This document shows, in pieces, positions 34,277 to 55,933 of a stretch of 64,000 bases of DNA. The translations under genes and the position numbers were made by a program. The notes under the pieces were generated by a model. It made no database searches. It had not been told where the DNA came from and saw only the letters and a program-made list of their open reading frames with translations. The stretch is from Vicinamibacterales bacterium (GTDB taxonomy: Bacteria > Acidobacteriota > Vicinamibacteria > Vicinamibacterales > 2-12-FULL-66-21): contig JBMDXQ010000085.1 of the NCBI GenBank assembly GCA_048594975.1, positions 21,822-85,821 on the forward strand, given 5' to 3'. Numbering within the stretch: position 1 is the stretch's first letter; each line of letters opens with the position of its first letter.

Positions 34277-34285
34277 GCGGCATCG

Positions 34286-36321: not shown

Positions 36322-37725
36322 CTAGCCGAACATCTTCGGCGTCGGCATCCGCGCGCGGATGCGCTCCAGCTCCTCGACCGTAACTCGGCTGATGCCGTTC
36401 TTGCGGCAGGACTCCTCGACAGCCTTGACGACCATCCCCCGAACGAATGCCGGAATCCTCTTCATCCGCTCGGCCGCCTCATCGTCCCACGCGATCGTCT
36501 TGCGCGATTCCACGCCGTACTCGATGGCGGGAGCCCCCGTCCTCCCTGCCGCGCCTTGGACGGCGAGAACGGGAGAACCGGCGAACTTCCCGGGGGTGTG
36601 CGTGCACAGCGGATCTTCGGCCATCAGGTCGCCGGTCATGCCGTAAGCGCGGGCGCGGCAGCCCCCGCAGTGGGCGTTCATCTCGCACGCCCCGCACCGA
36701 CCGCCGAGCGAGCCGCGGCGGCGAACGTCGGTGAACAGTCGAGAGGAGGTCCACAGGTCCGCCAGCGACGCGCTGCGAAGCGATCCTGCGAACACCGGCA
36801 GGTAGGGGCACGGCGTCACATCCCCATTCGGCCGGATTCCCATGTAGTGCGTTCCCGCCGGACACCCGCCGGCGCCGCCGGAGTAGGTCCTTATCGGCGA
36901 CGACCCGGGCCACGGCGACGAACGCGTCGACCCAGCATCCGTCGTGATCGGATCTGTCCCGACCGCTGAATTCTCCAGAACGGTCTTGATGTAGTGCGGG
37001 GCGCACTTCGCGTTCACGAGCATCCGGCGGTCGTACTTCCGCTGGATCCGGTAGAGAGAGGCGAGGACCTCGTCGTACTGCGCCGGGCTCATGTCGGACA
37101 CGAACTGCCCGCGCCCCGTGGGCACCAGGAAGTAGAGGTTCCAGACCTTCGCCGCCAGGCGCTCGTGGGCGAAATCGGCGATCGCCTCGAGCTCGCCGAG
37201 ATTGTGGGAGCCCGCGGTGGTCTGCACGATGAAGGGCAGCCCGGTCCGGTTCAGGATCTCCGCGCCGTCGACCGTGTTCTGCCAGGCGCCCCGCACCCGG
37301 CGAAAGCGGTCGTGACGCTCGGGATCGAGCGCGTCGAGGGAGAGCGAGAGCCCCCGCGCCCCGGCCTCTGCCAGGCGCGCGGCCACGTGCTCGGTGATGC
37401 GCACGCCGTTGGTGCCGACGACGACCCAGAGTCCACGCTCCGCGGCACGCCGGACGATCTCGAGAATGTCGCGCCGCAGGAGCGGCTCGCCTCCGGTCAG
37501 GATGGTCATGCACTCGGGCGCGAACGCGGCGATTTCGTCGATGACCCTGAAACAGTCGTCGGTGCCGAGCTCGCTGCGATCGGCGAAGTTCTCCGTGCCG
37601 ACCATCGGCGTGCCGCCGGCGTCGAGATAGCAGTGCTCGCAGGCGAGGTTGCAGCGGTAGGTGAGGTTCCAGGAGATCACGTAGGGGCGGGCGAAGGGCG
37701 TCGCGCCGCTCCGCGGGGTGCTCAT
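36322..37725 (-). CDS. Radical SAM/SPASM protein (AhbD/NirJ-like) with a C-terminal PCP_red-like domain
   Basis: WNLTYRCNLACEHCY; TGGEP; CAPHY; CPAG...PCPY...CGAC...CGGCRARAY...DPLC; tail WDDEAAERMKRIPAFVRGMV. Confidence 0.88.
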   Translation of the reverse strand: MSTPRSGATPFARPYVISWNLTYRCNLACEHCYLDAGGTPMVGTENFADRSELGTDDCFRVIDEIAAFAPECMTILTGGEPLLRRDILEIVRRAAERGLWVVVGTNGVRITEHVAARLAEAGARGLSLSLDALDPERHDRFRRVRGAWQNTVDGAEILNRTGLPFIVQTTAGSHNLGELEAIADFAHERLAAKVWNLYFLVPTGRGQFVSDMSPAQYDEVLASLYRIQRKYDRRMLVNAKCAPHYIKTVLENSAVGTDPITTDAGSTRSSPWPGSSPIRTYSGGAGGCPAGTHYMGIRPNGDVTPCPYLPVFAGSLRSASLADLWTSSRLFTDVRRRGSLGGRCGACEMNAHCGGCRARAYGMTGDLMAEDPLCTHTPGKFAGSPVLAVQGAAGRTGAPAIEYGVESRKTIAWDDEAAERMKRIPAFVRGMVVKAVEESCRKNGISRVTVEELERIRARMPTPKMFG

Positions 37726-37809
37726 CTCGGAGACATCCACCGATCCAACCTCCAGCGGCCCCCTGTTCAACTCCCGATTGCCGACTCGCACAACTAAACG
37801 CTGTCGCGC

Positions 37810-38265
37810 CTACATACCAAAGAACTCGCGGGCAGCGTCGAGGATCGTCTCGTCCACTTCCAGCGCCCCACGCTCTCGGGCGAATCGCTCGATGCCGGTC
37901 CGCGCCATCGGCCGGACGAACTCCGGAACCTTCGCGAGCCTCGCTTCCGCGGCGGCGGTCCAGCGCACGGGAATCGGCCCGGAGGCGTTGTCGGGTCGGG
38001 CCTCCGTTTCCGCGATCATCGCCGGGAACGGGCAGCCCGCGCCGGAGGCGCCCGTCGCCCCGGCACCCGCCGCCTGCCCGCCGTTCTCGGGCCCGATCCG
38101 CACGCCGAGCGACTGAACGATCTGGGTCTCGTAGGCGTTGGTGAGCATCGCCATCTCGTAGCCGCACTCCGGGCACGCGTAGACGACCGACAGCGAGCCG
38201 CGATCGGGCGGGCCGACGGTCTGCAGCTTCATCGGCGTGTCGCACGGGATACAGAGGAACTTCAT
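37810..38265 (-). CDS. Zn-ribbon-like + PCP_red-like domain protein
   Basis: CIPC...CPEC, GCPF, tail WTAAAEARLAKVPEFVRPMARTGIERFA. Confidence 0.82.
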   Translation of the reverse strand: MKFLCIPCDTPMKLQTVGPPDRGSLSVVYACPECGYEMAMLTNAYETQIVQSLGVRIGPENGGQAAGAGATGASGAGCPFPAMIAETEARPDNASGPIPVRWTAAAEARLAKVPEFVRPMARTGIERFARERGALEVDETILDAAREFFGM

Positions 38266-39185
38266 TCTGGAGGCTCCCTCTCGGGTCGCAGTTCGCTCAC
38301 AGCATGCGCGGAGGCTGGCGTGGACGCTTCCAGCCCGTCCAGCAATCGCTGTGCGATCTGATCCAGGGCGCGGCCGACCGGCGTTGCATCGTCCTGAAAA
38401 GGGATCCCTTGATCGCAGTGGCGCGCTAGCTCGGGATCGAACGGCACGGTCCCGAGACAGGGGATCCCGAGGTCCAACGGGCGGGACGGGCTGAACAGGG
38501 GTTTGACCGCCTTGCAGTCACGACAGTAGTAGCCGCTCATGTTCTCGACGTAGCCGAGGAGCCGATTCGGGCCCTTCGACACCGCGGCGACCGAGCGCGC
38601 GACCACGCCCCGTGCCACTTCGGAAGGGATCGTCACGAGCAGAAACGAGGTTCGCGGCCCGAGGAAATCGGCGTACTGGACGGTGCGGTCGGCTCCCGGC
38701 GGCAGATCGACCATCAGCAGGTCGAGCGGTCCCCAATCGAAGGACCCGAGGATCTCGCCGAGGAGCGCGAACTCCCTCGTGGCGCGCCACGTATGGGACT
38801 CTCCGCGCGCCGCGCTCTCGAAGTCGAGGGACTCGGACTCCGGGATGAGCGAGCCCATCGAGAACACCCCGAGCCCGTTCCTGGTCCTCGGGAGCGCGAC
38901 TCTCTGTCTGCCGGGCACGAACGGCGTCCTCTCGACGCCTGCCATGCGCGCCTGCGAGGGGCCGTTGAAGTCCGCGTCCAGGATCGCAATCCGCAGGCCG
39001 CGGGCGCGCAGCGCGCCCGCGATGTGCAGCGTCAGAGTGCTTTTGCCCACTCCTCCCTTGCCGGAGCCGACGGCCACCAGATGGCGCACTCTGGCGAGCC
39101 CGTCCGCGATGCGGGCGCGCTGTTCCGCGACCTGCTCGAGGATCCGGGATCCTCCGTCGCCGGAGATGTCGTGGTAGCTCTTCAC
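38262..39185 (-). CDS. mrp: Mrp/NBP35 family P-loop ATPase
   Basis: SGKGGVGKST; LDADFNGPS; DLPPG; ENMSGYYCRDC. Confidence 0.9.
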   Translation of the reverse strand: MKSYHDISGDGGSRILEQVAEQRARIADGLARVRHLVAVGSGKGGVGKSTLTLHIAGALRARGLRIAILDADFNGPSQARMAGVERTPFVPGRQRVALPRTRNGLGVFSMGSLIPESESLDFESAARGESHTWRATREFALLGEILGSFDWGPLDLLMVDLPPGADRTVQYADFLGPRTSFLLVTIPSEVARGVVARSVAAVSKGPNRLLGYVENMSGYYCRDCKAVKPLFSPSRPLDLGIPCLGTVPFDPELARHCDQGIPFQDDATPVGRALDQIAQRLLDGLEASTPASAHAVSELRPEREPPE

Positions 39186-39305
39186 CTTGGTGACGCTCCG
39201 GGGGTGATAGCTTACACCGTCCCGCGCCGGGAGCGGGTGATGTCTCGAACGACAGGACGCGACCAAGGGTGCTCGCTGGAGTAGCTTCTGGAGGGCAATC
39301 GCCCG

Positions 39306-41891
39306 CTACTGTTTCAGACCGACTTTCTCGAGCAGGGCGGTGAAGCGCGGGTGGCCCGCAAGGTCAGCCCACCGTGGCTCAACGGTGAGAAAAGTCAGAA
39401 GCAGGTCCCGTGCTTCGACGGCCTCTCCGAGCCGGTTCAGCGCCTCGTCGTGCTCGCCCAAGCCGAGATGGACGAGCGCAAGGTTCGACGGCGGGACATA
39501 GGCCTGCGCGGCTCTCGTTTTCAGCCGGTCGAGAATCGTGCGGGCCTCTTCTCGCCTCCCGCTGACCGCGAGCGTATAGCCTGCGGTGGCCGTCACCACC
39601 AGGGACCCACCCAGCTCGGTCGCCTTGTCGAACGCCAGGAGCGCCTCCCTATACATCCCCTTCCGTCCGTAAATCCGCCCCATCATGTTGTGCGTAAGCC
39701 ACAGCGCCGGGTCAAGCGGGAGAGTCTTCTGAAGGTGCGTGAGCGACTCGTCGTAGCGCCCTTCGTAATACAGGCACTGCGCGAAGAGGGCGTTGGCCAG
39801 GGCGGAGTGGGGCTCGTAGTCGAGCGCTCGTCTCATCTCCTGCAGTGCACGGGTGTGATCGCCGAGGTTCGAGAACAGGTGTCCGTAAAAGGTGTGCGCG
39901 GCCGGGTCCGGCCGATCGGACGCAATCGCGCGCCTGAACTCCTCCTCGGCGCCGCTCCAGTCCCAGTCGAACCAGAACTTGATGATGCCCATGGACACTC
40001 GCGCTTCCGAGAGACCGGGATCGATGGCGAGTGCGCGCTCAGCAGCGGTTCTCGCGTGCGGGAACGACTCCTTGGGCGCAACATCGCTCGTCATCGCCCG
40101 CAGAATGTACGCCTCGGCCAGCTTCGCGTAGGCCCGTCCGTAGCCCGGATCCAGCGTCACGGCCTCGCGAAGGTACTCGAGCCCTTTCCGTAGGTCACCC
40201 GGCGTGCGCCTCTGCACGTGGTATCGCCCCTTCGCGTACAGCTGATAGGCGGCAGGGAGTCTGGTGTCGTCGCCGCTGGCAAGCAGGGGCCGCGACGAGA
40301 AACCGAGCGCCTCCACGAGTTCGCGGGCGATCTCGGTCTGCAGCGTCAGGAGGTCACCGATCGGCCTGACGAACTGCCGCTTCCACAACCCCGTCCCGTC
40401 GGCGCTGCGCAGGAGTTCCAGCCGGACGATGACGGTATCAGCGCGGCGTTCGAGAGTCCCCGTCAGGACGGTGGCGACGCGCATCTCACGGCCGGCCTGT
40501 GCGGGTGACACGCCGAGCCGCTCGTAGCGGGCGGCCTCGCTCGCGGCTGCCTGACGGATGGAGGACACCTGCGCAAGCCGGCTTCGCAACGAGGCAGCGA
40601 TGCCGTCGGCCAGGTACTCGCCGTCGCGGATTTCCCCTGCGTTGTCGAGCGGCAAGACACCGATCGACGTAATGGCGGGAGTTTCGCGGCCGCGTCCCGC
40701 CACTGTCGCGAGATATGCCGTCGCCGAGACGACAACAAGCGCTGCGGCGCCGAGCCACGACAGCGTGCGCAGGGTTCCGAAGCGAGGGCGTCCGGCCCGC
40801 CCGCTGACCCTGGCGCCATCCCCGGGTAGATTCTCGAGCACGCGACGCAGCACGCGCAGATCGCGGACCAGGTCACTGCTCGTCGCGTAGCGATCCGCGC
40901 GATCGTGCGACAGCGCGCGAGTGACAATCGGCGCGAGCTCCGGCGCAAGGTGGGCGAGCTCGTCGAGCGCAGGCCGGCTTGCAGTCCCTAGCGGTCGCTC
41001 CCGTTCCGCGTTTGCGGCCGCTGGCGGCAGATGCCCGGTTGCCATCTCGTAGATGACAATTCCGAGACTCCACACGTCCGTGCGGGCATCGACGGTGAGA
41101 CCCTGGCGCTGCTCGGGAGACATGTACCCGGTCGTGCCGATCACCGTGCCTTCGGGTCCGGTGGATCCGGTCGGAGCGAGCGGATGTTCGCCACCTGTCC
41201 TCGTGGCGATGCCGAAGTCGAGGATCTTCACCAGGCCGTCGGCGCGCAGCATGACGTTGTCCGGCTTGATGTCGCGATGCACCACGCCCGCCTCGTGCGC
41301 CGCCGCCAGGCCCTCGGCGATCTGGAACGCGATGTTCACCACCTCGGGTGCGGGGATGGGTCCCTGCTTCAACCGCTCGCGCAACGTGATCCCGTCGGCG
41401 TAATCAGCTGCGATGAACCTCGTGCCCTTGTGCTCGCCGATCTCGTAGATCGTCACGATGTTGGGGTGGTTCAGGGCCGACGCCGCGAGCGCCTCGTGCC
41501 GGAAGGCCGCAATCCACTCCGAGTCCGCCAGATCCGGCCGCAGCACCTTCAGGGCGACGTTGCGCCCCAGCCTGGAATCGCGTGCGAGGTAGACGTCGCC
41601 CATGCCGCCGGCGCCAAGCGGGCGCAGGATCGCGTACGAACCAATCGTGCGCGGGATTCTGCGCGGTTCGCCTTCATCCGCCTCGGCGAGGGCGCGAGCT
41701 GCCAACTCCACGGCCGAGTGCTCCACGAACGCAGCCGACCGCTCGTCGTACTTCAGCAGCGCCTCGATCTCCTCGACGAGCTCGACATCGGCGTCGGCTT
41801 CGCTGCGAACGAACGCCGTCCTTTCGCACGCCGGCAACTCCAGCGCCGCGTGATAGATCCGTTCGATTCGAGTCCAGCGGTCGACAGTCAT
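39306..41891 (-). CDS. Ser/Thr protein kinase with TolB-like and TPR domains
   Basis: GAGGMGDVY, VALKVL, HRDIKPDN, DFG, YMSPEQ; SIGVLPL; C-terminal TPR-like repeats. Confidence 0.95.
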   Translation of the reverse strand: MTVDRWTRIERIYHAALELPACERTAFVRSEADADVELVEEIEALLKYDERSAAFVEHSAVELAARALAEADEGEPRRIPRTIGSYAILRPLGAGGMGDVYLARDSRLGRNVALKVLRPDLADSEWIAAFRHEALAASALNHPNIVTIYEIGEHKGTRFIAADYADGITLRERLKQGPIPAPEVVNIAFQIAEGLAAAHEAGVVHRDIKPDNVMLRADGLVKILDFGIATRTGGEHPLAPTGSTGPEGTVIGTTGYMSPEQRQGLTVDARTDVWSLGIVIYEMATGHLPPAAANAERERPLGTASRPALDELAHLAPELAPIVTRALSHDRADRYATSSDLVRDLRVLRRVLENLPGDGARVSGRAGRPRFGTLRTLSWLGAAALVVVSATAYLATVAGRGRETPAITSIGVLPLDNAGEIRDGEYLADGIAASLRSRLAQVSSIRQAAASEAARYERLGVSPAQAGREMRVATVLTGTLERRADTVIVRLELLRSADGTGLWKRQFVRPIGDLLTLQTEIARELVEALGFSSRPLLASGDDTRLPAAYQLYAKGRYHVQRRTPGDLRKGLEYLREAVTLDPGYGRAYAKLAEAYILRAMTSDVAPKESFPHARTAAERALAIDPGLSEARVSMGIIKFWFDWDWSGAEEEFRRAIASDRPDPAAHTFYGHLFSNLGDHTRALQEMRRALDYEPHSALANALFAQCLYYEGRYDESLTHLQKTLPLDPALWLTHNMMGRIYGRKGMYREALLAFDKATELGGSLVVTATAGYTLAVSGRREEARTILDRLKTRAAQAYVPPSNLALVHLGLGEHDEALNRLGEAVEARDLLLTFLTVEPRWADLAGHPRFTALLEKVGLKQ

Positions 41892-42466
41892 CCGGACTTG
41901 TTCTCAGTGAGCCATCGCAGCAACCACGACTTGGCCAGGCGGCAGTCCCGCTTCAGCGTCTCGGCCGAGACGCCGAGCACGAGCGCGGCCTCGTCAATCG
42001 ACAGACCGCCGAAGAACCGCAGCTCGATGGCCCGGCTCTTTCGCTCATCGACTTCCGCGAGCGCATTCAGCGCGTCGTCCAGCGCGACGAGGTCCTCGTC
42101 CGGCGCGTTCGCGACGAGCAGCGCCTCGTCGAGCGGAACCCGACGGTCCCCGCCGCCGCGCTTCCGGTATCCCTTTTCGCGGGCGAAATCCACCAGTACC
42201 CGGCGCATGATTCTCGCCGAGATGCCGAAGAAGTGCGCGCGATTCTGCCAGTCGATGCTTCGTGCGTCCACCAGCCGGATGTAAGCCTCGTGAATGAGCG
42301 CGGTCGTCTGGAGCGTGTGGCCAGCTCGCTCGCGGTGCATGTACCGCCTGGCCAGGCGATGCAATTCAGCGTGAACCAGGGGCACGAGCCGATCGAGGGC
42401 ACCGGGTTCGCCCGCGCTCCAGGCCTGGAGCAATGCCGTCACCCTGGGTGAGGTTCGCGTCCGCAC
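41888..42466 (-). CDS. ECF sigma factor (kinase-associated, TIGR02999-like)
   Basis: VTALLQAW...HTLQTTALIHEAY...RAHFF...LRFFGGLS; stop overlaps the kinase start. Confidence 0.92.
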   Translation of the reverse strand: MRTRTSPRVTALLQAWSAGEPGALDRLVPLVHAELHRLARRYMHRERAGHTLQTTALIHEAYIRLVDARSIDWQNRAHFFGISARIMRRVLVDFAREKGYRKRGGGDRRVPLDEALLVANAPDEDLVALDDALNALAEVDERKSRAIELRFFGGLSIDEAALVLGVSAETLKRDCRLAKSWLLRWLTENKSG

Positions 42467-42517
42467 GGCCCGCTTCGATGCGGATTATAGCGGTCGCACC
42501 ATGGGACCGGTCGGACC

Positions 42518-42568
42518 GGGGTCAGATCTCGATCTCCTGAACCCTTTCGAAGCTTGAGGTCTGGCCCC
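42518..42568. repeat. GGGGTCAGA...TCTGGCCCC palindromic repeat
   Basis: GGGGTCAGATCTCGA / TTGAGGTCTGGCCCC imperfect IR; all three mismatches are G-U compatible. Confidence 0.55.
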
Positions 42569-42659
42569 AGAGCAACTCGCCGGGTTACCCGTTTGTCGGC
42601 GAATTCCCGCATTCACTCCCTACAAGGTACCGGCCGCGAGCGACCGGGAGGAGGAGACA

Positions 42660-43142
42660 GTGCGAGGAATTACGAAATTCGTGTTCACTAGCGCGCGCAC
42701 GATTGGGGTGAGTGCTCTGGTTGTGGCCGCGGTCGCGGCGGGTATACTAGCTGCGGGTTGCAGCCGGGCTCCGGCCAGTCCGACGGCCCCCGCCGCGCAC
42801 CCCACCGGCACGGCGGCGGCCACCGCTCAGGGCACGAGTCAAAGCTGGCAGGACTTTCAGGCGCACGGATGGAACTGCCGAACGCCGGGGGGCGGCCCCG
42901 TGACCGTGTGCAGCCCGCCGGGCCAGCCCCTTCCGACACCCGCGTTTCCACCTGATGAGCCGCCCGACGATCGGCCCCCTACCGTCATGTTGAAGCGATG
43001 GCGGGATGGCGTCTTCGAGGCGAACGTTCTGTTGATCAGGCCCGAACTCTACAACGGCCAACTCTGCGAGCCTACGGATGAGCCGTATGTCTGGGCCGCG
43101 GTGCTTGGGTACTTCGAGTGCGCCCATCCAGCCGAGAAGTGA
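42660..43142 (+). CDS. Hypothetical lipoprotein
   Basis: SD GGAGGAGG; lipobox ILAAG-C; four further Cys residues. Confidence 0.75.
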   Translation: MRGITKFVFTSARTIGVSALVVAAVAAGILAAGCSRAPASPTAPAAHPTGTAAATAQGTSQSWQDFQAHGWNCRTPGGGPVTVCSPPGQPLPTPAFPPDEPPDDRPPTVMLKRWRDGVFEANVLLIRPELYNGQLCEPTDEPYVWAAVLGYFECAHPAEK

Positions 43143-43194
43143 AATCCAATCTGATGGGAAGAGCGACAGGCCGAGCTGTCGCTCTCCCGCGCTC

Positions 43195-44061
43195 CTATGC
43201 CGCCTGTGCGGTTGCCGCATAGAGCAGATGACGGGCGGCGGGTCGGAACCCGAGGGCCTCGAGAGACGCGGCTGGGATCTCGGCCGGATGCACCTTCGGG
43301 AACCGAAAGATCCCCTTGCCGAGTCGAGAAACCAGGAGCTTCAGTCTGGCTCCCCCGTCCTCGACGACCGAACGGAGTCCCACAATCCCTGGGCCCGGGT
43401 CGGAGCGTCCACTTATGTAGAGGATGAACGCCTCAATTCGTTCATCGGAAGCGACGGCGAGGCCGGCGATGTCGCCCTTCCTGGCCGCGAAGGTCTCGGC
43501 CGAGCGCTCCCAGGCCGCCTGTGAATGTGCCTCCCGGAGCAGATCGTTGGCGGCGAGGTCCTCAACCGTGACAGGGATCACGAACCGGGCAGCGGCCGAA
43601 CTGAAGTTCGGCCCTACGTCATCCAACGCGGCACGCTCCAGGACGTAGTCGGTGAGGACGGCTTCCTGAACGTATCCACAGGCCTCGAACAGTCCGCAGG
43701 CGGCAACGAACGCCTCGGGGACCTCGGCAACGATGCGGGTTGGGCCAAGAATCGCCAGCTTCGACCCGAGCGAGGCGAGCAGGTGACGGGCATGACCCTG
43801 CCGCAGGTGATCCGGATGGACGGCGATCTTGTGAACGAGAGTAGCTGAAGGCCGCTTCGCGCCGATCAGAACGCCGATCGGATCGCTGCCCGAAAAGGCG
43901 ACCATGCAGCTGCTGCACCAGACCTGCAGGTCGCGGATCGACCGTTTGAACGAGGCGGGCGTCTCGCGCGGTTGGTCGGGAAAGTACGGCGCCCAGCAGC
44001 GGTTCAGCGCCTCGACGAGCAGCCCGATGTCGTCCGTGCGGCAGAAGCGGTAAGCAGACAC
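43195..44061 (-). CDS. GNAT family acetyltransferase
   Basis: IAVHPDHLRQGHARHL (acetyl-CoA motif A); LFEACGY; a second GNAT-like half ending LEALGF. Confidence 0.8.
   Translation of the reverse strand: MSAYRFCRTDDIGLLVEALNRCWAPYFPDQPRETPASFKRSIRDLQVWCSSCMVAFSGSDPIGVLIGAKRPSATLVHKIAVHPDHLRQGHARHLLASLGSKLAILGPTRIVAEVPEAFVAACGLFEACGYVQEAVLTDYVLERAALDDVGPNFSSAAARFVIPVTVEDLAANDLLREAHSQAAWERSAETFAARKGDIAGLAVASDERIEAFILYISGRSDPGPGIVGLRSVVEDGGARLKLLVSRLGKGIFRFPKVHPAEIPAASLEALGFRPAARHLLYAATAQAA
43594..43617 (-). repeat. GTAG-type REP palindrome inside the GNAT CDS
   Basis: GTAG-GGCCGAAC-TTCA-GTTCGGCC, encoding VGPNFSSA. Confidence 0.75.
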
Positions 44062-44067
44062 GTGAAA

Positions 44068-46121: not shown

Positions 46122-46136
46122 CGGGATCCTCTTTCA

Positions 46137-46285: not shown

Positions 46286-46298
46286 GGTTCAGGCACTC

Positions 46299-48032: not shown

Positions 48033-48847
48033 TGGTGCGCGACCGCTTCCCGGGCGCGAGGCTTCTGGCCGGTGAAATCGTAGAGGAAGAGGATCGCGTC
48101 CCAGATCTCCTCCTCCTTCAGGAACTTCTCCCAGGCGGGCATGGCGGTGTCCCACGGGCCCCCTTCCTCGGGAAGCCCGGGCCCCCCCTTGGAGATCCGC
48201 CAGAACAGGAACGTATCGCGGAGATTCGCGATCGTGGCGCCGTCGGCGAAGTTGGTCGGAATCGGATCCAGGCCGTGCACGAACATGCCATTGCCGGACA
48301 GGTCGTCGCCGTGGCAGAAGACGCAGTTCTGGTAGTAGACGCGGCGGCCGTTCTCGACGTGCCTGCGGTACTCCGTCGGATCCGATCCCTCGAGCGGCAG
48401 GTACGGGTTCTCGCCGGCGTCGAGGTCGATCTTCTTGTCGTGAACGGTGATGGCGGACGGGGATGCGGGATGGACCGTCCGCGAGAAGAACGGGGGCTGG
48501 ACCGGGACGTTCATCTGGAAGTACACGTTCGCCGCCGCCAGCGCCGGAATGGCGACGACCGTCGCGCCGAGCAGCACCGTATACCGCCGGTCCGTCATGA
48601 ACCGGACGAGCGGCCCGGCGACTTCCTCGCGGCGCGCCTCGCTGGAGGACACGTACGCCAGGATCGCTATCGTGGCGATTCCCATGTAGATCGAGATGAC
48701 GGACGCGGGGATCGGGGCCGTGAACCCGAATCGGAGCAGGACGTAGATCCCCGCCCACCAGGCGAATGCCCAGATCAGCAGGTTGGCCCGGCGGAGGCGA
48801 AGGAGCCCGAACGCAGCGGCAACGGCAAGGACGACGGCGATCTTCAT
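48029..48847 (-). CDS. Membrane-anchored monoheme cytochrome c
   Basis: Three to four N-terminal TMs; CVFCH; PTNF; TAMPAW. Confidence 0.88.
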   Translation of the reverse strand: MKIAVVLAVAAAFGLLRLRRANLLIWAFAWWAGIYVLLRFGFTAPIPASVISIYMGIATIAILAYVSSSEARREEVAGPLVRFMTDRRYTVLLGATVVAIPALAAANVYFQMNVPVQPPFFSRTVHPASPSAITVHDKKIDLDAGENPYLPLEGSDPTEYRRHVENGRRVYYQNCVFCHGDDLSGNGMFVHGLDPIPTNFADGATIANLRDTFLFWRISKGGPGLPEEGGPWDTAMPAWEKFLKEEEIWDAILFLYDFTGQKPRAREAVAHQ

Positions 48848-49386
48848 GGTTTCGGCGCGCCCTCCTTTTTGGGAGTGGTCGGAGCCGGCGCTACGCCCGG
48901 CGCGCCGGCGAGATAACGATGGGCCGACTGGAGCGTCACCGTCGGCGTGCCGCCAAGCGTCTGCAGGTATGCGATCACGCAGAGGATCTCCTGATCGGTG
49001 AGGCCGATCGGAGGCTTGTTGATGGGGGGCATCCCAGGGTTGAATCCCTCGACGATGTAGCTGTCGGGTTCGTACATCGATTGAGCGAGGTAATCGATGT
49101 CGCTCAGGCCCGGGACGCGGCTGCCCGCCCGGGCGCCGATCCCGTCGAGGTCGGGAAACCGGAGCGCGCCGGACTTGCCGATCGTGTGGCAGGTCAGGCA
49201 GAGCCCCTTGCCCTCCATGATCCCGCGGCCGACCTTGACCATGTCGGCCGTGGACAGATCGCTGGCGAGGACGGTTTCCTGGGGAGGCAGCACCTCTTTC
49301 TGCGGCACCATCTGCCCGACATAGGTATAGAACGCGGTGGTCACCAGCACGAGAGCGCCGATCCGCGCCGTGTGCGGGATGGTCAT
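48844..49386 (-). CDS. Monoheme cytochrome c
   Basis: N-terminal anchor; CLTCH; YLAQSMYEP...GMP. Confidence 0.88.
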   Translation of the reverse strand: MTIPHTARIGALVLVTTAFYTYVGQMVPQKEVLPPQETVLASDLSTADMVKVGRGIMEGKGLCLTCHTIGKSGALRFPDLDGIGARAGSRVPGLSDIDYLAQSMYEPDSYIVEGFNPGMPPINKPPIGLTDQEILCVIAYLQTLGGTPTVTLQSAHRYLAGAPGVAPAPTTPKKEGAPKP

Positions 49387-51293
49387 GCGGTCCTCTCCGC
49401 CTCACTCACGTCGGTGAGCAGCGGCGTACTGCGCTCCTCAGGGCTGGGCCGCCGGTAGTCCGGCCGCTCGTGCAGGCTCGTGATCCAGAACACGAAGCCA
49501 ATCAGGCCGAAGAACAAGAGCACGGTCACCGAGACGACCTGCGTCGCAAAGCCGAGCGTGGGCGTGAACGCGTCCGGCGAGGTGTCGCGGACGACCCCGT
49601 AGACGTGCCAGTGCTGCCGGAGCCCGGACCGGACGTAGCCCATGAGCCCCATGAGCCAGGTGAACGTGACCGCGATGAAAATCAGCACGTATTGCGAGAT
49701 CGCGGGGATCCTCCCCCAGCGGACCTCGCCGGTCTTCCGGGCGCCGCGGAAGAGGAAGATGTCGATGACGGTGATCGACACCATCGCGAGCAGAACCGAG
49801 AGGACCTGCGGCACCGAGAGCCCGATCCGGACCGTCGCCTCGACGAAGTACCCGTAGACGCCGAGGAAGATGACGATCACTGCCGCGCCCGCGAAGATCG
49901 CGAGCTGCGCCGTATGGCCCATCTTCGCCCACGCCACCGTCGCGATCTTGCCCGTCCGGCGGTAGAGGAGGAAGCTCATGAAGGTGGTCAGGATGAGGAT
50001 GTTCACGGCGGTGTTCTTCGCCGACATCACGCCGAGGAACCCCAGGACCGGGTGCGACGACCCGCCCATCGCCCGGACTTCGGACACCGTCGCGATGATC
50101 GATCGCGGGGTTGCCCAGACCGCGAAGCAGACCGCGATCCCGACGAGCAGGTACTTGATGAACCGCTGAACGGGCTGCGCGCCCTCGACCCGGCCCATGC
50201 CGAGCCAGAGGTAGTAGTTGGCCGCGAGGAAGAGATTCCCGATCAGCACGGCCTGGATGATGAAGAGCCAGGAGAAGGCGCCGCCCATCATCGTCAGCCC
50301 GAGCGTCTGCGAGTACGCGTAGATCTCTTTCGCGAGCCAGTAGCCGGCGAAGGGGAGCGGGAGGAACGCGAGGATGGCGACGAAGTTGCCGATGTACCCC
50401 ATCCAGTCGTAGTGGGCGCGCTCCTCGTCGGTCTTCGCCTGCAGGAACTTGAACGCCGCGTAGGCGGCGGCCACCGATCCGCCGAAGGCGACGTTGGCAA
50501 TGAGGCGATGGACGTTGATGGGCATCCAGGTGAAGTTGGTGACCGCCTCCATGACATCGAGCACGGCTCCCGAATCCGAGATGCCGCGCGGCGACATCAT
50601 GAACGTGAGCCAGGCGTTGGCGATGAACATGATCCCCGTCCCGACGACGTTCAGCCCGAGCCCCAGGCCCAGATGCACCAGTGGATGGAACTTCCCCCAG
50701 CCGTAGTAGTAGGCGTAGAGGAAGAAGGCCTCGAAGAAGAACAGCAGCACGTAGGGCAGAAACGTGGGGGAGAACACGCTCATCAGGTAGTTCGTGAACT
50801 TCGGATACAGGATGATGAGCATGAAGGTCAGGAAGGCGCCGAAGGTCGCGGTCAACGAGAACGAAACCGAGAGGAGCTTGGTGAACTCGTACGCGAGCCG
50901 GTCGTATCGCAGCTCGCCGGTCTTGTAGCCGATGACCTCGATGATGAACGCGAACATCGGGACCGCCAGGACGAAGGCCGCGAACAGCAGGTGGAGCTGC
51001 GCGACCGCCCAGACGGCCACCCGGCTCCCGACCATCGGGAATCTCCGGTATTCGGCCTCCTGGTAGGGCGTGGCGCGGGCCGTCCTCTCGGCGTCTGCCT
51101 GCTCGGCGGCGAGTCCCTCGGCGCGCGGCGTCGGATCGCCGGCGGCCGCCGGAGCCCGGTAGGGTGCCCGGTATTCGCGGCTGACCACCACCGAGACCAT
51201 CTTCACCGTCGCGGCGAACATCACGATGGCCGCGACCGGGCCGAGCAGGATCAGCAGCTTGCGGTTCATCAGGCCGTTCATCAGCCCGTTCAT
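49383..51293 (-). CDS. Cytochrome bd-like oxidase subunit I (CydA-related, no cydB partner)
   Basis: Many TMs; QLHLLF (CydA His19-like), FFEAFFLYAY, IANAWLTFMMSP, NVHRL (His186-like), MGYVRSGLRQHWHVY where CydA has GW..E.GRQPW. Confidence 0.82.
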   Translation of the reverse strand: MNGLMNGLMNRKLLILLGPVAAIVMFAATVKMVSVVVSREYRAPYRAPAAAGDPTPRAEGLAAEQADAERTARATPYQEAEYRRFPMVGSRVAVWAVAQLHLLFAAFVLAVPMFAFIIEVIGYKTGELRYDRLAYEFTKLLSVSFSLTATFGAFLTFMLIILYPKFTNYLMSVFSPTFLPYVLLFFFEAFFLYAYYYGWGKFHPLVHLGLGLGLNVVGTGIMFIANAWLTFMMSPRGISDSGAVLDVMEAVTNFTWMPINVHRLIANVAFGGSVAAAYAAFKFLQAKTDEERAHYDWMGYIGNFVAILAFLPLPFAGYWLAKEIYAYSQTLGLTMMGGAFSWLFIIQAVLIGNLFLAANYYLWLGMGRVEGAQPVQRFIKYLLVGIAVCFAVWATPRSIIATVSEVRAMGGSSHPVLGFLGVMSAKNTAVNILILTTFMSFLLYRRTGKIATVAWAKMGHTAQLAIFAGAAVIVIFLGVYGYFVEATVRIGLSVPQVLSVLLAMVSITVIDIFLFRGARKTGEVRWGRIPAISQYVLIFIAVTFTWLMGLMGYVRSGLRQHWHVYGVVRDTSPDAFTPTLGFATQVVSVTVLLFFGLIGFVFWITSLHERPDYRRPSPEERSTPLLTDVSEAERTA

Positions 51294-51306
51294 TGCGGCG
51301 CCCCCA

Positions 51307-51987
51307 TCATTTGAGGCCCTCCGCCTTCGCGCGCGTGCTGTCTGGCGCGCGCTCCGGCGAGACCTCGCCGAAGCCGCTTCGCGGTGGCGGCGGGGCGGAG
51401 ACGCCCGAGGCGCTCGACGGCCGATTGCGCTGCAGCTCCCGCACGTGGGCGACGATCGCCCACCTGTCGGCGGGAGGGATCGGCCAGCGGTACCCGGCCA
51501 TGAGCCCCTGCCCGTTGGTGATGACGTCGAAGATCTGCCCGTCCGGGTACTTCAGGACCTTCTCCTGGTGCATCGAGGCGGTGGGGACGTTGCCCCGCTG
51601 AAACAGGATCCCCTTGCCGTCCCCGCGGGCGTCGTGACACGGTTGACAGTAGATCCGGTAGCGCTCGCGCCCCCGCTCGACGAGCGCCGCGTCCACGGTC
51701 ACCGGAATCGTCGCGACGAACTGCCCGTCCGCTCCCTTTCCGGTGTGGAACGCCGCGTCCTCCTTCAGCCCGCCGATCGGCACCGTTCCGGGAACGGGCT
51801 CTCGCATCGATGCGCCGTTCTGGAAGAAATTGCTGGCCGCCTGCGCGCGGGCCTTCGGCTGGTCGTCCATGCTCGGATTCAGATGGATCGGCGGGCGGCT
51901 CGAGGTGCAGCCGCGCGCGCAGCCGGTAAGGGCGACGAGAGACGCGAGCGCGAGCGCGCCCACCACGCCCCGGCAGCCCGCGATCAT
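51307..51987 (-). CDS. actE: Alternative complex III subunit E, copy 2
   Basis: Lipobox LTGC; MDDQPK; CQPCH; DRWAIVAH. Confidence 0.88.
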   Translation of the reverse strand: MIAGCRGVVGALALASLVALTGCARGCTSSRPPIHLNPSMDDQPKARAQAASNFFQNGASMREPVPGTVPIGGLKEDAAFHTGKGADGQFVATIPVTVDAALVERGRERYRIYCQPCHDARGDGKGILFQRGNVPTASMHQEKVLKYPDGQIFDVITNGQGLMAGYRWPIPPADRWAIVAHVRELQRNRPSSASGVSAPPPPRSGFGEVSPERAPDSTRAKAEGLK

Positions 51988-54900
51988 GCGCCAGGCCTCC
52001 CTTCCTGCCCGCCGACCGCGTCGCGACGCCCGGCGACATGCCCGGGGCGTCCCGGGCTCGTCCAGGCGTGCGCGCCGTCGAGGGCCGGGTTCGGGTTGCG
52101 TACCTTGGCCAGGTAGGTCGTTCGCGGCCTGGTGTTCAGATCGTCGAGCAACGCGTAATTGCGGCGGTCCGCCTTCGCCTGTGCGACCCGGCTCGATCGG
52201 TCCCGAAGATCTCCGAATTCGATCGCCGAGGCGGGGCAGGCCTGCTGGCACGCCGTCCGGACGTCGCCGTCGCGAAGCTCACGCCCCGCGAGCTTCGCAT
52301 CGATTCTCGCCCGGTTGATCCGCTGCGTGCAGTAGGTGCACTTCTCCATCACGCCCCTGGCGCGAACCGTGACGTCCGGGTTCATCGCCAGCCGGAGGAT
52401 GTCGGGCGTGTCCTTGGTGAAGTTGAAGAAGTTGAAGCGGCGCACCTTGTAGGGGCAGTTGTTCGAGCAATAGCGGGTCCCGATGCAGCGGTTGTAGACC
52501 ATCACGTTGAGGCCCTGGCCGTCGTGAACGGTCGCGGCCACCGGGCAGACCTGCTCGCACGGGGCGTCCTCGCAGTGCATGCAGGGAACCGGCTGGAACA
52601 CGATCTCCGGAGTCCCCGAAGGCTCGCCGGAGAAGTACCGGTCCACCCGCAGCCAGTGCATCTCGCGGCCCTTCGCCACCTGGATCTTGCCGACGACCGG
52701 CACGTTGTTCTCGCTCTGGCACGCCGTCATGCACGCGTTGCAGCCGATGCAGGCGTTCAGGTCGATCGTCATGCCCCACTGGTGGCCCTGGTCGTAGGCG
52801 TGCTCTTTCCAGAGCGAGAAGTGATGCGGGTCCTCCGGGAAGACGCCAAGCGCGCCCGGGACTCCTCCTCCCCCCTTCGGCGCGTGTGCGGAACCTTCCG
52901 TCTGCGCGGATTCTGCCGCATGGGCGCCTTCGGCCGGTGCCGGCGGGGACGCCGCTGTCGATCGCAGCTCGGCGAGCGTGGATTCGTGGACGAGCGGGCG
53001 ACCCTCCATGCTGCCGTGGTTCTGGGTCGCCGAGAGCGCGAACTTGCGTCCGAGCGTGGCGAGCGTGGCGCCGCCATCGAACCCGGGCGCCCTGGATGCT
53101 CGAAGCCTGAACGTGTCGAAGCCGACGCCGGTTCCAATCCGTCCCGCACGCTGACGACCGTAGCCAAGGGTCAGCGCCACTACGCCGTCCGCCATCCCGG
53201 GGACGATCGAGACGGGAAGCTCCAGCGAGCGGCCGGCGTAATCGAGACGCACCAGGTCCTCGCTGGCCAGGCCGCGCGCCTCGGCGGTCATCGGGCTCAC
53301 GAGCGCGGGGTTGTCCCACGTGAGCTTGGTGATGGCATCAGGAAGTTCCTGCAGCCAGGCGTCGTTCGCGAAGCGGCCGTCGTGAAGCGACGCGGACGGG
53401 AGGAACACGATTTCCAGGGCATCAGAAGATCCCGCATCGGCCGGTCTGGAACCGGCGGCGCCGGTTGCACCAATCAGCCGCGCGAGCTCCGCCATCGGCT
53501 CCCCGGCGACATCGGGCGCGATTTCCGGAAGCTCGCTGCCCGACAGCAGCCCGTCATGCAGGACGCGGTTCCACCTGCCGTCGAACTCGGCCTCACCGAG
53601 GATCGGTTTCCACGTGTCCCGCACGACGTCGTAGCCGGGACGATCCTTTCCCGATGCCATCAGCGCCAGCACTTCGACCGGCGTCCGCCCGCCAAACAAC
53701 GGAAGGATCAGCGGCTGGACGACGCTGAGCGTGCCCCCAGCGGCGCGCGCGTCGCCCCAGGATTCGAGGTAGTGAGCGCGCGGGACGTGCCATTCCGCCC
53801 TGGACGATGTCTCGTCGACGCCGTGGCCGAGCGCGATGACGTGCGGGACCTTCGCCAGCGCCGACGCGAAGTCGAGATCGGCGGGAGCATCGAACACCGG
53901 ATTGCCCCCCAGGACCACGAGTGTCTGGACCGCGCCTCCGTTCATCGCCGAGACGAGCGAGGCCAGCGAGCTCGCGCTCGGAAGCGCCGCGTCCTTCGGC
54001 TCGTAGTAGCTGACGGTCGTGCCGGTGTTGCCGAGATACGAGTTCAGCGCGCACACCGCGGCGTGGACGGCGGCGGGCTGGCGCTCCCCCGCTACGATCA
54101 ACGCTGTCCCGCGGTTCGCGAGGAGGTCCTTCGCCAGCGCGTCGAGCCAGCGGGGATCGACGCCCGGGGCGCCCGCGCCCGCTGCGCTCGTCGGCCCGGG
54201 CGCGCCGAGGCGTGCCGCGAGAGCCGCGAGCAACGTCGCGATCTGCCGGCTCTCGAGACGGAGCCGATGATCGGCCATGGCTCCCGTCAGCGAGTAGACC
54301 CCTTCGACGGCGTAGAGCCGGTTCATCGTGCCGCCGGAGGCCCCCGCGCGCCTTCCCGCCGCGAACCCTCGCGCGTGGCGGATCATCTCCGGGTCGGTCA
54401 GCAGCGGGTCGGCGTCGAGACAGAGAATCACCGAGGCGCGGTCGAGGCGCAGCACGAGATCGAGGTCGCGTCCGGTGGCGAGCTTCAGCCCCGCGAGCCG
54501 GTTCTCGTCGCTGACGGCGTCGTAGGTCGCCCACTGCATGCGGGGATAGCGGCCCCGGAGCTCGGCAACCAGTCGCGACAGCGTGGGCGACGAGAACGAG
54601 TCGGACAGGATCGCGAGGCCGGCGCCGCCATTCGGCGAATGAGCAGCCGACCGCTGCCCCCAGGCTGCCACGAAATCGTTCCAGGACCTCCGTTCACCCT
54701 TCAGGGTGACCGATTGCGAGCGGTCGGGATCGTAGAGGCCGAGCACCGACGCCTGAATGCGCGAGCTCGAGGCGCCAAGCGTCGAGGGGTGCGAGGGGTT
54801 CCCTTCGATCTTGGTCGGCCGTCCTTCGTGGCTCTCGACGATCAGGCCGTAGGCGCTCCGGCGGAACGGCATGGTCGTGGCGTAGTAGCGCGGGATCCCG

Positions 54901-55127
54901 GGGACGATCTCCTCGGGAGCGGTGACGTAGGGGACAATCTCTTCGACCGGCCGGCGACACCCTGCGAGCCCCGCGAGCGACAGCGAGGCGCCGAGGAGCA
55001 TCATCATGTCGCGCCGGGTCACCCCCTCGGGCAGCTCCGAGGCGCCCTCCGGGAACTCCCGCTCGGCCGCGTCGCGAAACTCTGGATGTTGTTCGAGCCG
55101 CGCGAGACTTCGCCAGTAGGTTTTCAC
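51984..55127 (-). CDS. actB: Alternative complex III subunit B, copy 2
   Basis: GTG overlapping the actA stop; YWRSL; Tat-like TRRDMM; GRPTKIEGNPSHP; four Fe-S motifs. Confidence 0.94.
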   Translation of the reverse strand: MKTYWRSLARLEQHPEFRDAAEREFPEGASELPEGVTRRDMMMLLGASLSLAGLAGCRRPVEEIVPYVTAPEEIVPGIPRYYATTMPFRRSAYGLIVESHEGRPTKIEGNPSHPSTLGASSSRIQASVLGLYDPDRSQSVTLKGERRSWNDFVAAWGQRSAAHSPNGGAGLAILSDSFSSPTLSRLVAELRGRYPRMQWATYDAVSDENRLAGLKLATGRDLDLVLRLDRASVILCLDADPLLTDPEMIRHARGFAAGRRAGASGGTMNRLYAVEGVYSLTGAMADHRLRLESRQIATLLAALAARLGAPGPTSAAGAGAPGVDPRWLDALAKDLLANRGTALIVAGERQPAAVHAAVCALNSYLGNTGTTVSYYEPKDAALPSASSLASLVSAMNGGAVQTLVVLGGNPVFDAPADLDFASALAKVPHVIALGHGVDETSSRAEWHVPRAHYLESWGDARAAGGTLSVVQPLILPLFGGRTPVEVLALMASGKDRPGYDVVRDTWKPILGEAEFDGRWNRVLHDGLLSGSELPEIAPDVAGEPMAELARLIGATGAAGSRPADAGSSDALEIVFLPSASLHDGRFANDAWLQELPDAITKLTWDNPALVSPMTAEARGLASEDLVRLDYAGRSLELPVSIVPGMADGVVALTLGYGRQRAGRIGTGVGFDTFRLRASRAPGFDGGATLATLGRKFALSATQNHGSMEGRPLVHESTLAELRSTAASPPAPAEGAHAAESAQTEGSAHAPKGGGGVPGALGVFPEDPHHFSLWKEHAYDQGHQWGMTIDLNACIGCNACMTACQSENNVPVVGKIQVAKGREMHWLRVDRYFSGEPSGTPEIVFQPVPCMHCEDAPCEQVCPVAATVHDGQGLNVMVYNRCIGTRYCSNNCPYKVRRFNFFNFTKDTPDILRLAMNPDVTVRARGVMEKCTYCTQRINRARIDAKLAGRELRDGDVRTACQQACPASAIEFGDLRDRSSRVAQAKADRRNYALLDDLNTRPRTTYLAKVRNPNPALDGAHAWTSPGRPGHVAGRRDAVGGQEGRPGA

Positions 55128-55771
55128 CGGTGGCACCCCGAGCAGTCGGTCGGCGGATTCACCGGTCGTTCGCCGGCGAGCTGCGCCGCGAGCACCGCGA
55201 CGTCCCGGGGAGGCGTCCATTTCATGTTGGTGACCTCCGAGACCGGGCGCCGGTAGGGAGCGGGGTTGCGGTGGCACTCCAGACACCAGCTCATGCTGAG
55301 CGGCGTCATCTGCGTGACCGTCTCCATCTCGTCGACGCGGCCGTGGCAGGTGACGCAGCCGATTCCAGCCCTGACGTGCGCGTTGTGGGCGAAATACGCG
55401 TACTCGGGAAGCTTGTGGACCCGCACCCAGCGCATCGGCCGGCCGCTGGCGGCGCTGTCCCGGATTGGTGAGAGCGCCGCGCTGTCCCTCTTCACCGTCT
55501 GATGGCAGTTCATGCAGGTCCTGGTGGGCGGGACGTTGGCCACGGGAGAGAGCTCGACCGAGGCGTGACAGTACCGGCAATCGAGACCAAGCTCGCCGAC
55601 GTGAAGCCTGTGGCTATACGGGACTGGCTGAACGGGACGGTACCCCACGTCGGTGTACCACGGGGAGAAGTAATACCAGACGCCCACGATCGCGAGCGCC
55701 GGACCGAGAGTGCCGGCGAGGGCGGCCACGATCGGGAGCTTGTTCCACCACGGGGGAAAGATCTGGGCCAA
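55124..55771 (-). CDS. actA: Alternative complex III subunit A, copy 2 (pentaheme)
   Basis: CRYCH, CMNCH, CVTCH, CLECH, CSGCH; TTG start. Confidence 0.94.
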   Translation of the reverse strand: MAQIFPPWWNKLPIVAALAGTLGPALAIVGVWYYFSPWYTDVGYRPVQPVPYSHRLHVGELGLDCRYCHASVELSPVANVPPTRTCMNCHQTVKRDSAALSPIRDSAASGRPMRWVRVHKLPEYAYFAHNAHVRAGIGCVTCHGRVDEMETVTQMTPLSMSWCLECHRNPAPYRRPVSEVTNMKWTPPRDVAVLAAQLAGERPVNPPTDCSGCHR

Positions 55772-55904
55772 TGACTAGGACTCCCGGGCGCTGAAAGACA
55801 GGGGCCCGGGCCGCGAGTCCGGGATGGAACTGTGATGCCACATCCTCGCGCCCCAAGGAATTCGTCGCAGGGGAACGACCGTGATCCGGTCGAATAAGGC
55901 GGCG

Positions 55905-55933
55905 ATTCTACCCACGACCCGGACGAGGGTCAA
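55905..55933 (-). promoter_or_regulatory. Sigma70 promoter of the actABE / bd-like operon
   Basis: Minus strand TTGACC-N17-TAGAAT. Confidence 0.7.

Follow-up and report, generated by a model that had tools for sequence, protein, structure and literature searches.

Convergent operons in a Vicinamibacterales genome encode a putative split alternative complex III, an aa3-type oxidase and a cytochrome bd-like module

Results

Organization of the respiratory island

We analyzed a window of 64,000 nucleotides from a Vicinamibacterales bacterium (GenBank assembly GCA_048594975.1, contig JBMDXQ010000085.1; positions are counted from the first letter of the window), and within it the stretch 36322-55933, which encodes a cytochrome bd-like protein together with parts of an alternative complex III (ACIII), three cytochromes c and a set of accessory proteins. 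The source genome comprises 7.2 Mb in 163 contigs, and the G+C content of the window is 64-72%. An earlier note on this DNA had described the stretch as an undescribed and complete chain from quinol through ACIII and cytochrome c to a bd-like terminal reductase, with a maturation cluster of its own. We found instead that the stretch is one arm of a larger respiratory island of two convergent operons (about 27.7-55.9 kb), because ActC, ActD and ActF are encoded outside it, in a convergent operon at 27750-36007 that also encodes an aa3-type oxidase and to which the boundaries must be extended.

Open reading frame (ORF), Pfam and NCBIfam scans placed all real genes of 36322-55933 on the minus strand, and the genes and domains named in the earlier note were recovered, nearly in the order it gave. 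The cluster is headed by ActA' (55124-55771), a pentahaem cytochrome c of 215 amino acids (aa) with an N-terminal transmembrane helix (TM), five CxxCH motifs and matches to Pfam cytochrome c7/c3. It is followed by ActB' (51984-55127; 1047 aa), a fused molybdopterin-like/Fe-S subunit with a variant of the twin-arginine (TAT) signal (TIGR04519), a QrcB-like part and a QrcC-like Fe-S match of 209 bits, and by ActE' (51307-51987; 226 aa), a monohaem cytochrome c with one CxxCH motif and a lipoprotein-like N-terminus. Then come the bd-like CydA homologue (49383-51293; 636 aa; OR-N-type by its features), which matches PF01654 over residues 90-328 only and has about 14-15 predicted TMs, a 180-aa monohaem cytochrome c (48844-49386; Pfam, haem motif), a membrane-anchored monohaem cytochrome c of 272 aa with three predicted TMs (48029-48847), and a 577-aa protein (46299-48032; TIGR03477 match, C-terminal TM) in which a dihaem cytochrome c is joined to an EB_dh domain, of the NxrC/EbdC-like haem b type.

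The accessory genes continue on the same strand. They encode a 675-aa protein with the domain order USP-USP-PCP_red-(4-Cys)-PCP_red, its universal stress protein (USP) domains being of the ATP type (44094-46121; Pfam, NCBIfam), a 288-aa GNAT acetyltransferase (43195-44061; Pfam), an Mrp/ApbC-type P-loop Fe-S carrier ATPase (38262-39266, start uncertain; Pfam, NCBIfam), a small protein of 151 aa with four cysteines (CxxC...CxxC) and a PCP_red domain (37810-38265; Pfam), and an AhbD/NirJ2-like radical SAM-SPASM protein (rSAM) of 472-489 aa with a C-terminal PCP_red domain (36322-37791; Pfam, NCBIfam). The cassette that the earlier note had seen ahead of mrp consists of an extracytoplasmic function (ECF) sigma factor (41888-42466) and a Ser/Thr kinase-TPR protein (39306-41891), both identified by Pfam and on the minus strand. 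This sigma/kinase pair (39306-42466) is a lineage-specific insertion between GNAT and Mrp, since it occupies that position in none of 80 related loci, where GNAT adjoins Mrp. In the lineage of the window it may put the downstream Mrp, PCP_red and rSAM genes under separate control.

The promoter-like site TTGACC-N17-TAGAAT was confirmed exactly at 55933-55905 (minus strand), upstream of ActA' in the one long intergenic region of the cluster. It is the sole sigma-70-like match on either strand of 36200-56100. Because 1.2 such matches are expected for 36200-56100 from shuffled sequence, its weight comes from location and conservation and not from the match itself: a TTGAC-N17-19-TAnnnT site lies upstream of ActA in 43 of the 49 related loci with at least 350 nt upstream, at similar distances and with divergent spacers. 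The tight spacing also held up, as seven genes in succession, from ActA' to the EB_dh gene, are linked by 4-nt overlaps and a single 13-nt gap, which separates the ActA'/B'/E' run from that of the bd-like and three cytochrome genes. The fusion of the dihaem/EB_dh protein to USP did not: the EB_dh gene ends at a TGA stop (46299-46301) and a 177-nt gap follows, so these are two genes. No Rfam family scored above threshold in 26000-56500.

The plus-strand operon (27750-36007) converges on the rSAM gene and contains no ActA, ActB or ActE. It encodes ActC2, an NrfD-like quinol subunit (27750-29207, start approximate), ActD2 (29204-29764; PF11821, 233 bits) and ActF2, a 404-aa membrane subunit (29766-30980) with 42% identity to the canonical ActF of the window and 23% to ActC2. 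These are followed by a secreted CarboxypepD_reg-like protein with a possible cupredoxin part (31150-31896; weak blue-copper match to 5fc9, E 0.031; Cys-x2-His-x2-Met motif) and by the aa3-type haem-copper oxidase, comprising CoxA2 (COX1; 31916-33679), COX3 (33686-34276) and COX4_pro (34286-34618), all from Pfam, a small membrane ORF between COX4_pro and CoxB2 (34626-35207), and CoxB2 (COX2; about 35201-36007) with a CuA-like C-x-Q-x-C-x3-H-x2-M motif.

The window further holds a canonical ActABCDEF-SCO-caa3 operon on the minus strand (about 9493-22600; ActA 21872-22600, ActC 17157-18548, ActD 16611-17150, ActF 14496-15620), in which the ACIII genes are followed by SCO1/SenC, CoxB with a fused cytochrome c and CoxA of the caa3 type. 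Two ACIII sets and two haem-copper oxidases are thus encoded within the window.

Some details of the plus-strand operon and its surroundings are recorded here as side observations. An FAD-binding monooxygenase-like gene (PF01494; 26455-27687, plus strand) lies directly 5' of ActC2. The CarboxypepD_reg-like protein, a possible cupredoxin electron carrier, is kept beside the CoxA2-type oxidase in many genomes. The N-terminal half of the ORF at 34626-35207 resembles a wrong-frame artefact, and its C-terminal ~85 residues form a small CPxC membrane protein that related genomes retain between COX4_pro and CoxB2. In CoxB2, Gln replaces the usual Glu of the CuA motif (C-A-Q-L-C-G-L-G-H-Y-R-M).

A CydB-less, OR-N-type bd-like protein

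Judged from its sequence, the 636-aa protein belongs to the non-canonical bd-like proteins that lack CydB and is not a quinol-oxidising CydA, as the earlier note had held. It scores 82-84 bits against PF01654, over profile positions 2-241 of 418, compared with 496 bits over positions 2-418 for the canonical CydA of the same genome (contig C120), and the sole CydB match (PF02322) in the genome, C120:75240-76211, adjoins that canonical cydA. Between the two proteins, 133 aa align at 23% identity, and their C-terminal RQxW regions are similar. Solved CydA chains match the N-terminal part only, the best E-values being 1e-12 when the single sequence was used and 2e-15 when a profile was used. The phylogeny that the earlier note proposed as a check points the same way: in a quick maximum-likelihood tree of 38 rows, canonical CydA lies ~10 substitutions per site from the 636-aa protein.

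H101, E188 and H262 align with His19, Glu107 and His186 of E. coli CydA. The position of Glu99 is taken by Tyr181, and no residue could be aligned to Met393 or Glu445. Twelve positions are kept in at least 34 of 37 diverse members of the family (H101, E119, Y181, Y195, W199, H207, H262, R263, E405, K426, R555 and R559), H101 being kept in 35; E188, H414 and H563 are kept in 30-32 of them (E188 in 30). H207, H414 and H563 are further conserved histidines relative to canonical CydA. A hydropathy scan gave ~14-15 TMs, the Q-loop is absent, and we recognised no quinone site in the protein.

The preprint of Murali, Gennis & Hemp (2021) describes an OR-N family of the bd superfamily, whose N1/N2 types have ~14 TMs, lack the quinol site and keep His19. 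By such features the 636-aa protein would be of the OR-N type, with a CydA core, no quinol site, ~14 TMs and the His19 equivalent, and its operon has the OR-N trait of carrying alternative donors (cytochromes c, an EB_dh cytochrome b and ACIII parts). Full-length identity is 38-43% to proteins named Nitrospira sp. or Ca. Manganitrophaceae and to a TO_1-like locus. Among protein clusters, identity is 40% to one with the same two names and 34% to one named Nitrospinaceae. In the quick tree the window protein falls within a clade of 13 rows from Acidobacteriota, Fibrobacterota, Calditrichota and Rhodothermota, with 100% support in the Shimodaira-Hasegawa-like approximate likelihood-ratio test (SH-aLRT), and the Nitrospirota-named proteins form a separate 100% clade. 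Four longer relatives (P0132, P0135, P0152 and P0134; 779-846 aa) match PF01654 in two stretches, and a PA14 domain is present in one of the four; large insertions are evidently tolerated in the family.

Several relatives bear on the electron donor. In P0121, P0122 and P0137 one or two C-terminal cytochrome c domains are fused to the bd-like protein, and one fused domain weakly resembles the 180-aa cytochrome of the window. In two clusters of gene models from close relatives, P0015 (11 members) and P0042 (4 members), an ActE orthologue with 78% identity and the bd-like protein share one reading frame; these joins could be real fusions or sequencing or gene-calling artefacts. Both kinds of arrangement would fit cytochrome c, rather than quinol, as the donor.

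The EB_dh domain of the cluster is the only one in the genome. As the earlier note had stated for the window, nitrite oxidoreductase (NXR) is absent; our genome-wide check for a periplasmic NXR found NarGHJI only. The best match in the genome to the alpha subunit of type II dimethyl sulfoxide (DMSO) reductases (TIGR03479) reaches 233 bits, against a cut-off of 985, and belongs to NarG, which scores 1489 bits with TIGR01580 and lies in a canonical respiratory nitrate reductase operon, narGHJI (L094, G000:C101:114000-126000). Counted from its first ATG, the open frame upstream of narG spans 1371 aa, which is unusually long.

Conservation and distribution of the module

A word-indexed search returned 7,893 metagenome proteins at E <= 1e-5 among 8,000 candidates scored. 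The best 120 of these are 84-100% identical to the window protein, some of them named Vicinamibacterales. In an exhaustive search of representatives, 1,412 clusters reached E <= 1e-3, of which 257 reached E <= 1e-30, and in species-representative genomes at least 589 loci, from 600 candidate stretches, encode a bd-like relative. Within the phylum we used an even set of 301 Acidobacteriota genomes, each at least 90% complete. The bd-like gene occurs in 22 of them, from 16 genera, with a patchy distribution.

To describe synteny, 80 loci were searched with the window proteins, counting matches on the same strand with at least 35% coverage, and only loci with enough flanking sequence enter each denominator. 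Each of the two cytochromes c is present in 69/69 loci with at least 2.5 kb downstream, and the EB_dh protein in 61/61 with at least 4.5 kb. Among the 53 loci with at least 9.8 kb downstream we found the USP-PCP_red protein in 49, GNAT in 39, the 4-Cys PCP_red protein in 37, Mrp in 30 and rSAM in 23, many of the downstream absences being loci that end at the 10-kb flank. On the other side, ActA, ActB and ActE are present in 48 of the 58 loci with at least 5 kb upstream. The complete order, from ActA, ActB and ActE through the bd-like gene, the two cytochromes c, EB_dh, USP-PCP_red, GNAT, Mrp and 4-Cys PCP_red to rSAM, is unbroken in at least 13 loci. Loci from Rhodothermales, Fibrobacteres, Calditrichia and Myxococcota have no ActABE; in seven ActABE-less loci that were inspected, rSAM stands directly 3' of EB_dh. 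The genes of the stretch therefore co-occur strongly in other genomes, as the earlier note had expected, and the system is real, strongly conserved and widespread.

Two putative halves of an alternative complex III

ActA', ActB' (over 1114 aligned residues) and ActE' are 45%, 45% and 47% identical to the canonical copies in the window (45-52% overall). A domain scan and a search with the canonical Act proteins found no ActC, ActD or ActF within 36322-55933. The same queries against the genome located a second ActC (60% identity) and a second ActD (47%) on the plus strand of the window. The quinol site of ACIII structures lies in ActC. All subunits from ActA to ActF are thus encoded, split over the two convergent operons, and we propose that the two halves join. 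On homology and gene order, ActA'B'E' is best described as the periplasmic arm of an ABE/CDF-type ACIII that has moved to the head of the bd-like operon, and not as an orphan fragment.

Other genomes show the same division. In the complete genome G005, an ActC-D-F-CPDreg-Cox operon (ActC 76%, ActD 63%, ActF 51% and CoxA 75% identical to the window orthologues) lies ~0.7 Mb from the bd-like locus, without ActA, ActB or ActE and with unrelated genes upstream. In four close kin (G002-G005) the only full-length ActB adjoins the bd-like gene. We had considered that ActA'B'E' might be a decaying duplicate, and rejected this because of the conserved synteny (48/58 loci) and of this sole full-length ActB. 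A docking of ActB' on EB_dh in the manner of a beta-gamma pair was also considered, and was dropped once ActC2, ActD2 and ActF2 were found. ActD is present in 5/5 complete genomes with ActA'B'E', a presence test that did not discriminate. As a separate observation, the Thermoanaerobaculia genome G005 has a third ACIII-like cluster with a split ActB (L117, G005:C1:1876000-1890000), comprising an ActA-like gene, a molybdopterin-like part, an Fe-S part, an NrfD-like gene and a partial ActD-like gene.

The link to the haem-copper oxidase takes several forms. ActC-D-F stands directly 5' of a CoxA2-type oxidase in 8 of the 10 bd-like-bearing genomes examined (not in G267 or G125), as against 0/3 genomes without the bd-like gene. 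Thirteen loci leave at least 400 nt beyond the rSAM gene, and in 9 of them the next gene there is a convergent CoxB2. Two Rhodothermales loci have CoxB2 immediately 5' of the bd-like gene, and in G267 CPDreg-CoxA2 comes immediately after the bd-like module. In G175 and the unpublished genome G053 the genes stand in the order ActA-B-E-C-D-F beside the oxidase, and the bd-like operon of G175 starts without ActABE. A CoxA2-type oxidase was found in 21 of the 22 bd-like-bearing genomes (not in G200); the type is also common without the bd-like gene, with 114 of the 301 genomes matching at E <= 1e-150.

Accessory genes

The four PCP_red domains of the genome all lie in the cluster: the USP protein has two of them, and the 4-Cys protein and rSAM have one each. 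Among the 301 Acidobacteriota genomes PCP_red occurs in 27, namely in 22/22 with the bd-like gene versus 5/279 without it (20/20 with the bd-like gene when the unpublished genomes G053 and G150 are left out). The matches are mostly on the same contig, near the bd-like gene, and partly on other contigs in G125, G150 and G252. Two of the five genomes with PCP_red alone are 3.7-Mb two-replicon genomes of one genus, which we suspect to be phototrophs with BchB.

The best 120 rSAM homologues (81-100% identical) all combine rSAM, SPASM and PCP_red. The top-scoring families of the window protein are AhbD (TIGR04545), to which it aligns over the full profile (positions 1-339 of 339) with 291 bits, below the curated cut-off of 500, and NirJ2 with 277 bits; peptide maturases score ~100-137 bits. 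A profile search of the genome found no sirohaem decarboxylase (PF17805), HemF (PF01218) or AhbA/B, and gave a weak ChdC-like match (45.8 bits). A sirohaem-route function is therefore unlikely. The ChdC-like match is compatible with a coproporphyrin-dependent pathway, so coproheme may be available. In BchB, PCP_red forms the C-terminal part and covers the protochlorophyllide that is bound there, and for this reason we propose a tetrapyrrole-handling role for the accessory proteins.

Discussion

From the gene content, homology and co-occurrence observed here we infer, with modest confidence, that the two convergent operons encode a split ACIII, an aa3 oxidase with a cupredoxin-like protein, an OR-N-type bd-like module and a private accessory set that belong to one mechanism. 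Menaquinol would be oxidised at ActC2, and electrons would pass via the Fe-S clusters of ActB' and then the haems of ActA' and ActE' to c-type cytochromes, which would carry them to the aa3 oxidase and to the bd-like module as two alternative sinks. The latter would act as a cytochrome-c-fed O2 reductase, possibly as a nitric oxide (NO) reductase, and the PCP_red/rSAM/Mrp set would make, modify or insert a tetrapyrrole cofactor needed specifically by it. The terminal-reductase activity, the co-transcription and the role in 'maturation' put forward in the earlier note we likewise infer. A bolder version is speculative, and we would not expect it to hold in full: that rSAM-PCP_red, 4-Cys-PCP_red, USP-PCP_red, Mrp and GNAT constitute a dedicated pathway tailoring or making a non-standard haem for the OR-N protein, with PCP_red capping the tetrapyrrole as in BchB, and that the bd-like module, the split ACIII and the aa3 oxidase form one branched supercomplex in abundant soil Acidobacteriota.

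Several observations weigh against this interpretation. The presence of an aa3 oxidase in the same island makes the need for a second oxidase less obvious. With Tyr at the Glu99 position and no residues aligned to Met393 and Glu445, the haem complement of the bd-like protein may differ from that of bd oxidases. The module lacks ActABE outside Acidobacteriota, and ActABE was not found in 10 of the 58 loci with enough upstream sequence; in seven ActABE-less loci that were inspected (five of these ten, and two more) the bd-like gene opens the operon. ACIII is therefore not an obligatory donor. Since a complete canonical ACIII is encoded in the window, either of the two membrane arms could be the partner of ActA'B'E'. 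The order bd-like, c, c, dihaem/EB_dh is followed by metK in L096, a Nitrospirota-like metagenome locus, and no PCP_red gene lies within the locus, so the accessory set is perhaps not universal to OR-N oxidases. The rSAM score of 291 bits falls short of the AhbD cut-off of 500. Finally, the 22 genomes represent 16 genera and, being related, do not count as independent samples.

That 36322-55933 by itself forms a complete chain from quinol via ACIII and cytochrome c to the bd-like protein, with its own assembly genes, would agree with the strong synteny of the module and with co-directional ActA/B/E, cytochrome and bd-like genes that overlap by 4 nt behind one conserved promoter-like site. We nevertheless consider it very improbable, because the stretch lacks ActC, which holds the quinol site in ACIII structures, as well as ActD and ActF; the missing subunits are encoded in the convergent operon, and in G175 ActABE goes with ActCDF and not with the bd-like operon. 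The aa3 oxidase of that convergent operon also means that the bd-like protein is not the only terminal acceptor of the island.

A more serious alternative is that the bd-like module is not an oxidase at all, and is a haem-bearing, electron-transferring or quinone-interacting membrane unit through which the quinone pool or the adjacent aa3 oxidase is connected with the EB_dh haem b and the periplasmic cytochromes. Such a role has been raised for nitrite oxidisers by Lücker et al. 2013 (PMC3578206), and it would suit the absent Q-loop, the non-conserved Glu99 position and the location of the module near a haem-copper oxidase operon, whether convergent, divergent or tandem. EB_dh proteins, moreover, are electron-transfer subunits of type II DMSO reductases, and the window protein matches TIGR03477. 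Yet in the O2-site region 35/37 sequences keep the His19 equivalent and 30/37 the Glu107 equivalent, and we could recognise no quinone site. The literature also treats OR-N proteins as probable O2 reductases (Murali et al., preprint) and presents the homologous TO_1 as the top-expressed terminal-oxidase candidate in Manganitrophus (Yu et al. 2021, preprint). On balance a non-oxidase role appears doubtful.

The accessory genes, for their part, might be merely co-regulated with the bd-like module and serve growth at low O2 in general, rSAM being an AhbD-like coproheme decarboxylase that makes haem b independently of O2 and the other proteins its helpers. AhbD and NirJ2 are indeed the best-matching families of rSAM, the Joint Genome Institute (JGI) names its homologues 'AdoMet-dependent heme synthase', and a genome without PF17805 and PF01218 and with a weak ChdC-like match is compatible with a pathway in which coproheme is available. 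A general anaerobic enzyme, however, should be spread more widely than the 22/22 versus 5/279 distribution of PCP_red; the score lies well below the AhbD cut-off, and neither the PCP_red fusion nor the USP and 4-Cys PCP_red partners are known features of AhbD. We regard a general haem synthase as unlikely, and retain the dedicated branched system as the reading to work from.

In nitrite- and manganese-oxidising Nitrospirota, bd-like (OR-N) proteins have been put forward as the main terminal oxidases, and the same core module also occurs in common soil Acidobacteriota of heterotrophic lifestyle and in several further phyla. Organisms beyond the hard-to-grow nitrifiers thereby become available for its study, and the island supplies concrete candidates for its electron donor, subunit make-up and cofactor. 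To our knowledge, no OR-N bd-like oxidase has been characterised biochemically. If it exists, a dedicated haem-tailoring pathway would for the first time make the active-site cofactor of OR-N oxidases accessible to genetics.

Comparison with known systems

The kind of system is already known, in the OR-N/TO_1 and the ACIII-linked oxidases, and 'undescribed' was too strong a word for it. What we did not find in print is the split ACIII and the co-occurring set of AhbD-like rSAM, PCP_red, Mrp, USP and GNAT. Our literature search returned no publication on a bd-like module in Acidobacteriota, on a split ABE/CDF ACIII or on a link of bd-like proteins to AhbD-like rSAM/PCP_red/Mrp/USP; related operons may be drawn in Figure 1 or the supplements of Murali et al. 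The preprint of Yu et al. (2021) on Manganitrophaceae describes TO_1 as a bd-like protein accompanied by a pair of cytochromes c and by a periplasmic cytochrome b, a Nitrospirales comparison (PMC12342949) reports ACIII with OR-N5, and the Nitrospina genome paper (PMC3578206) describes the 14-TM bd-like oxidases of nitrite oxidisers. According to the published accounts, the kit of NXR clusters includes an alternative NxrC, mono- and dihaem cytochromes c, a zinc-finger protein, cupredoxins and a bd-like oxidase.

With the OR-N/TO_1 systems of Nitrospirota the window protein shares ~14 TMs, an N-terminal CydA core, the His19 and His186 equivalents, membrane helices in place of the Q-loop, the lack of CydB, and two cytochromes c and an EB_dh periplasmic cytochrome b as neighbours. 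It differs in falling into its own 100% SH-aLRT clade in the quick tree, in a module headed by ActABE with ActCDF and an aa3 oxidase as neighbours, in the absence of NXR, and in having the PCP_red/rSAM/Mrp/USP/GNAT set, which we did not observe in L096, the Nitrospirota-like locus. Like other systems that couple ACIII to an oxidase (ACIII-caa3/aa3, ACIII with OR-N5 CydAA' in Nitrospirales, and TO_3 of Manganitrophus), the island has the subunit types ActA to ActF and an adjoining oxidase. Its order, however, is ABE/CDF and not ABCDEF, its halves lie on convergent operons (0.7 Mb apart in G005), and each half stands with a distinct terminal module; moreover, its bd-like protein is of a single 14-TM type, unlike the paired 10-TM OR-N5a/b.

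Canonical CydAB shares with the window protein the Cyt_bd_oxida_I domain (residues 90-328) and the C-terminal RQxW region, whereas the window protein lacks the Q-loop and CydB, has Tyr at Glu99 and carries extra helices and three extra conserved histidines. The window rSAM, in turn, resembles AhbD and NirJ2 in its full TIGR04545 alignment and its rSAM and SPASM/auxiliary-cluster domains. It is set apart from them by its score (291 bits against a cut-off of 500), by its C-terminal PCP_red domain, by a genome without AhbA/B and by a genomic tie to the bd-like module instead of to a haem pathway.

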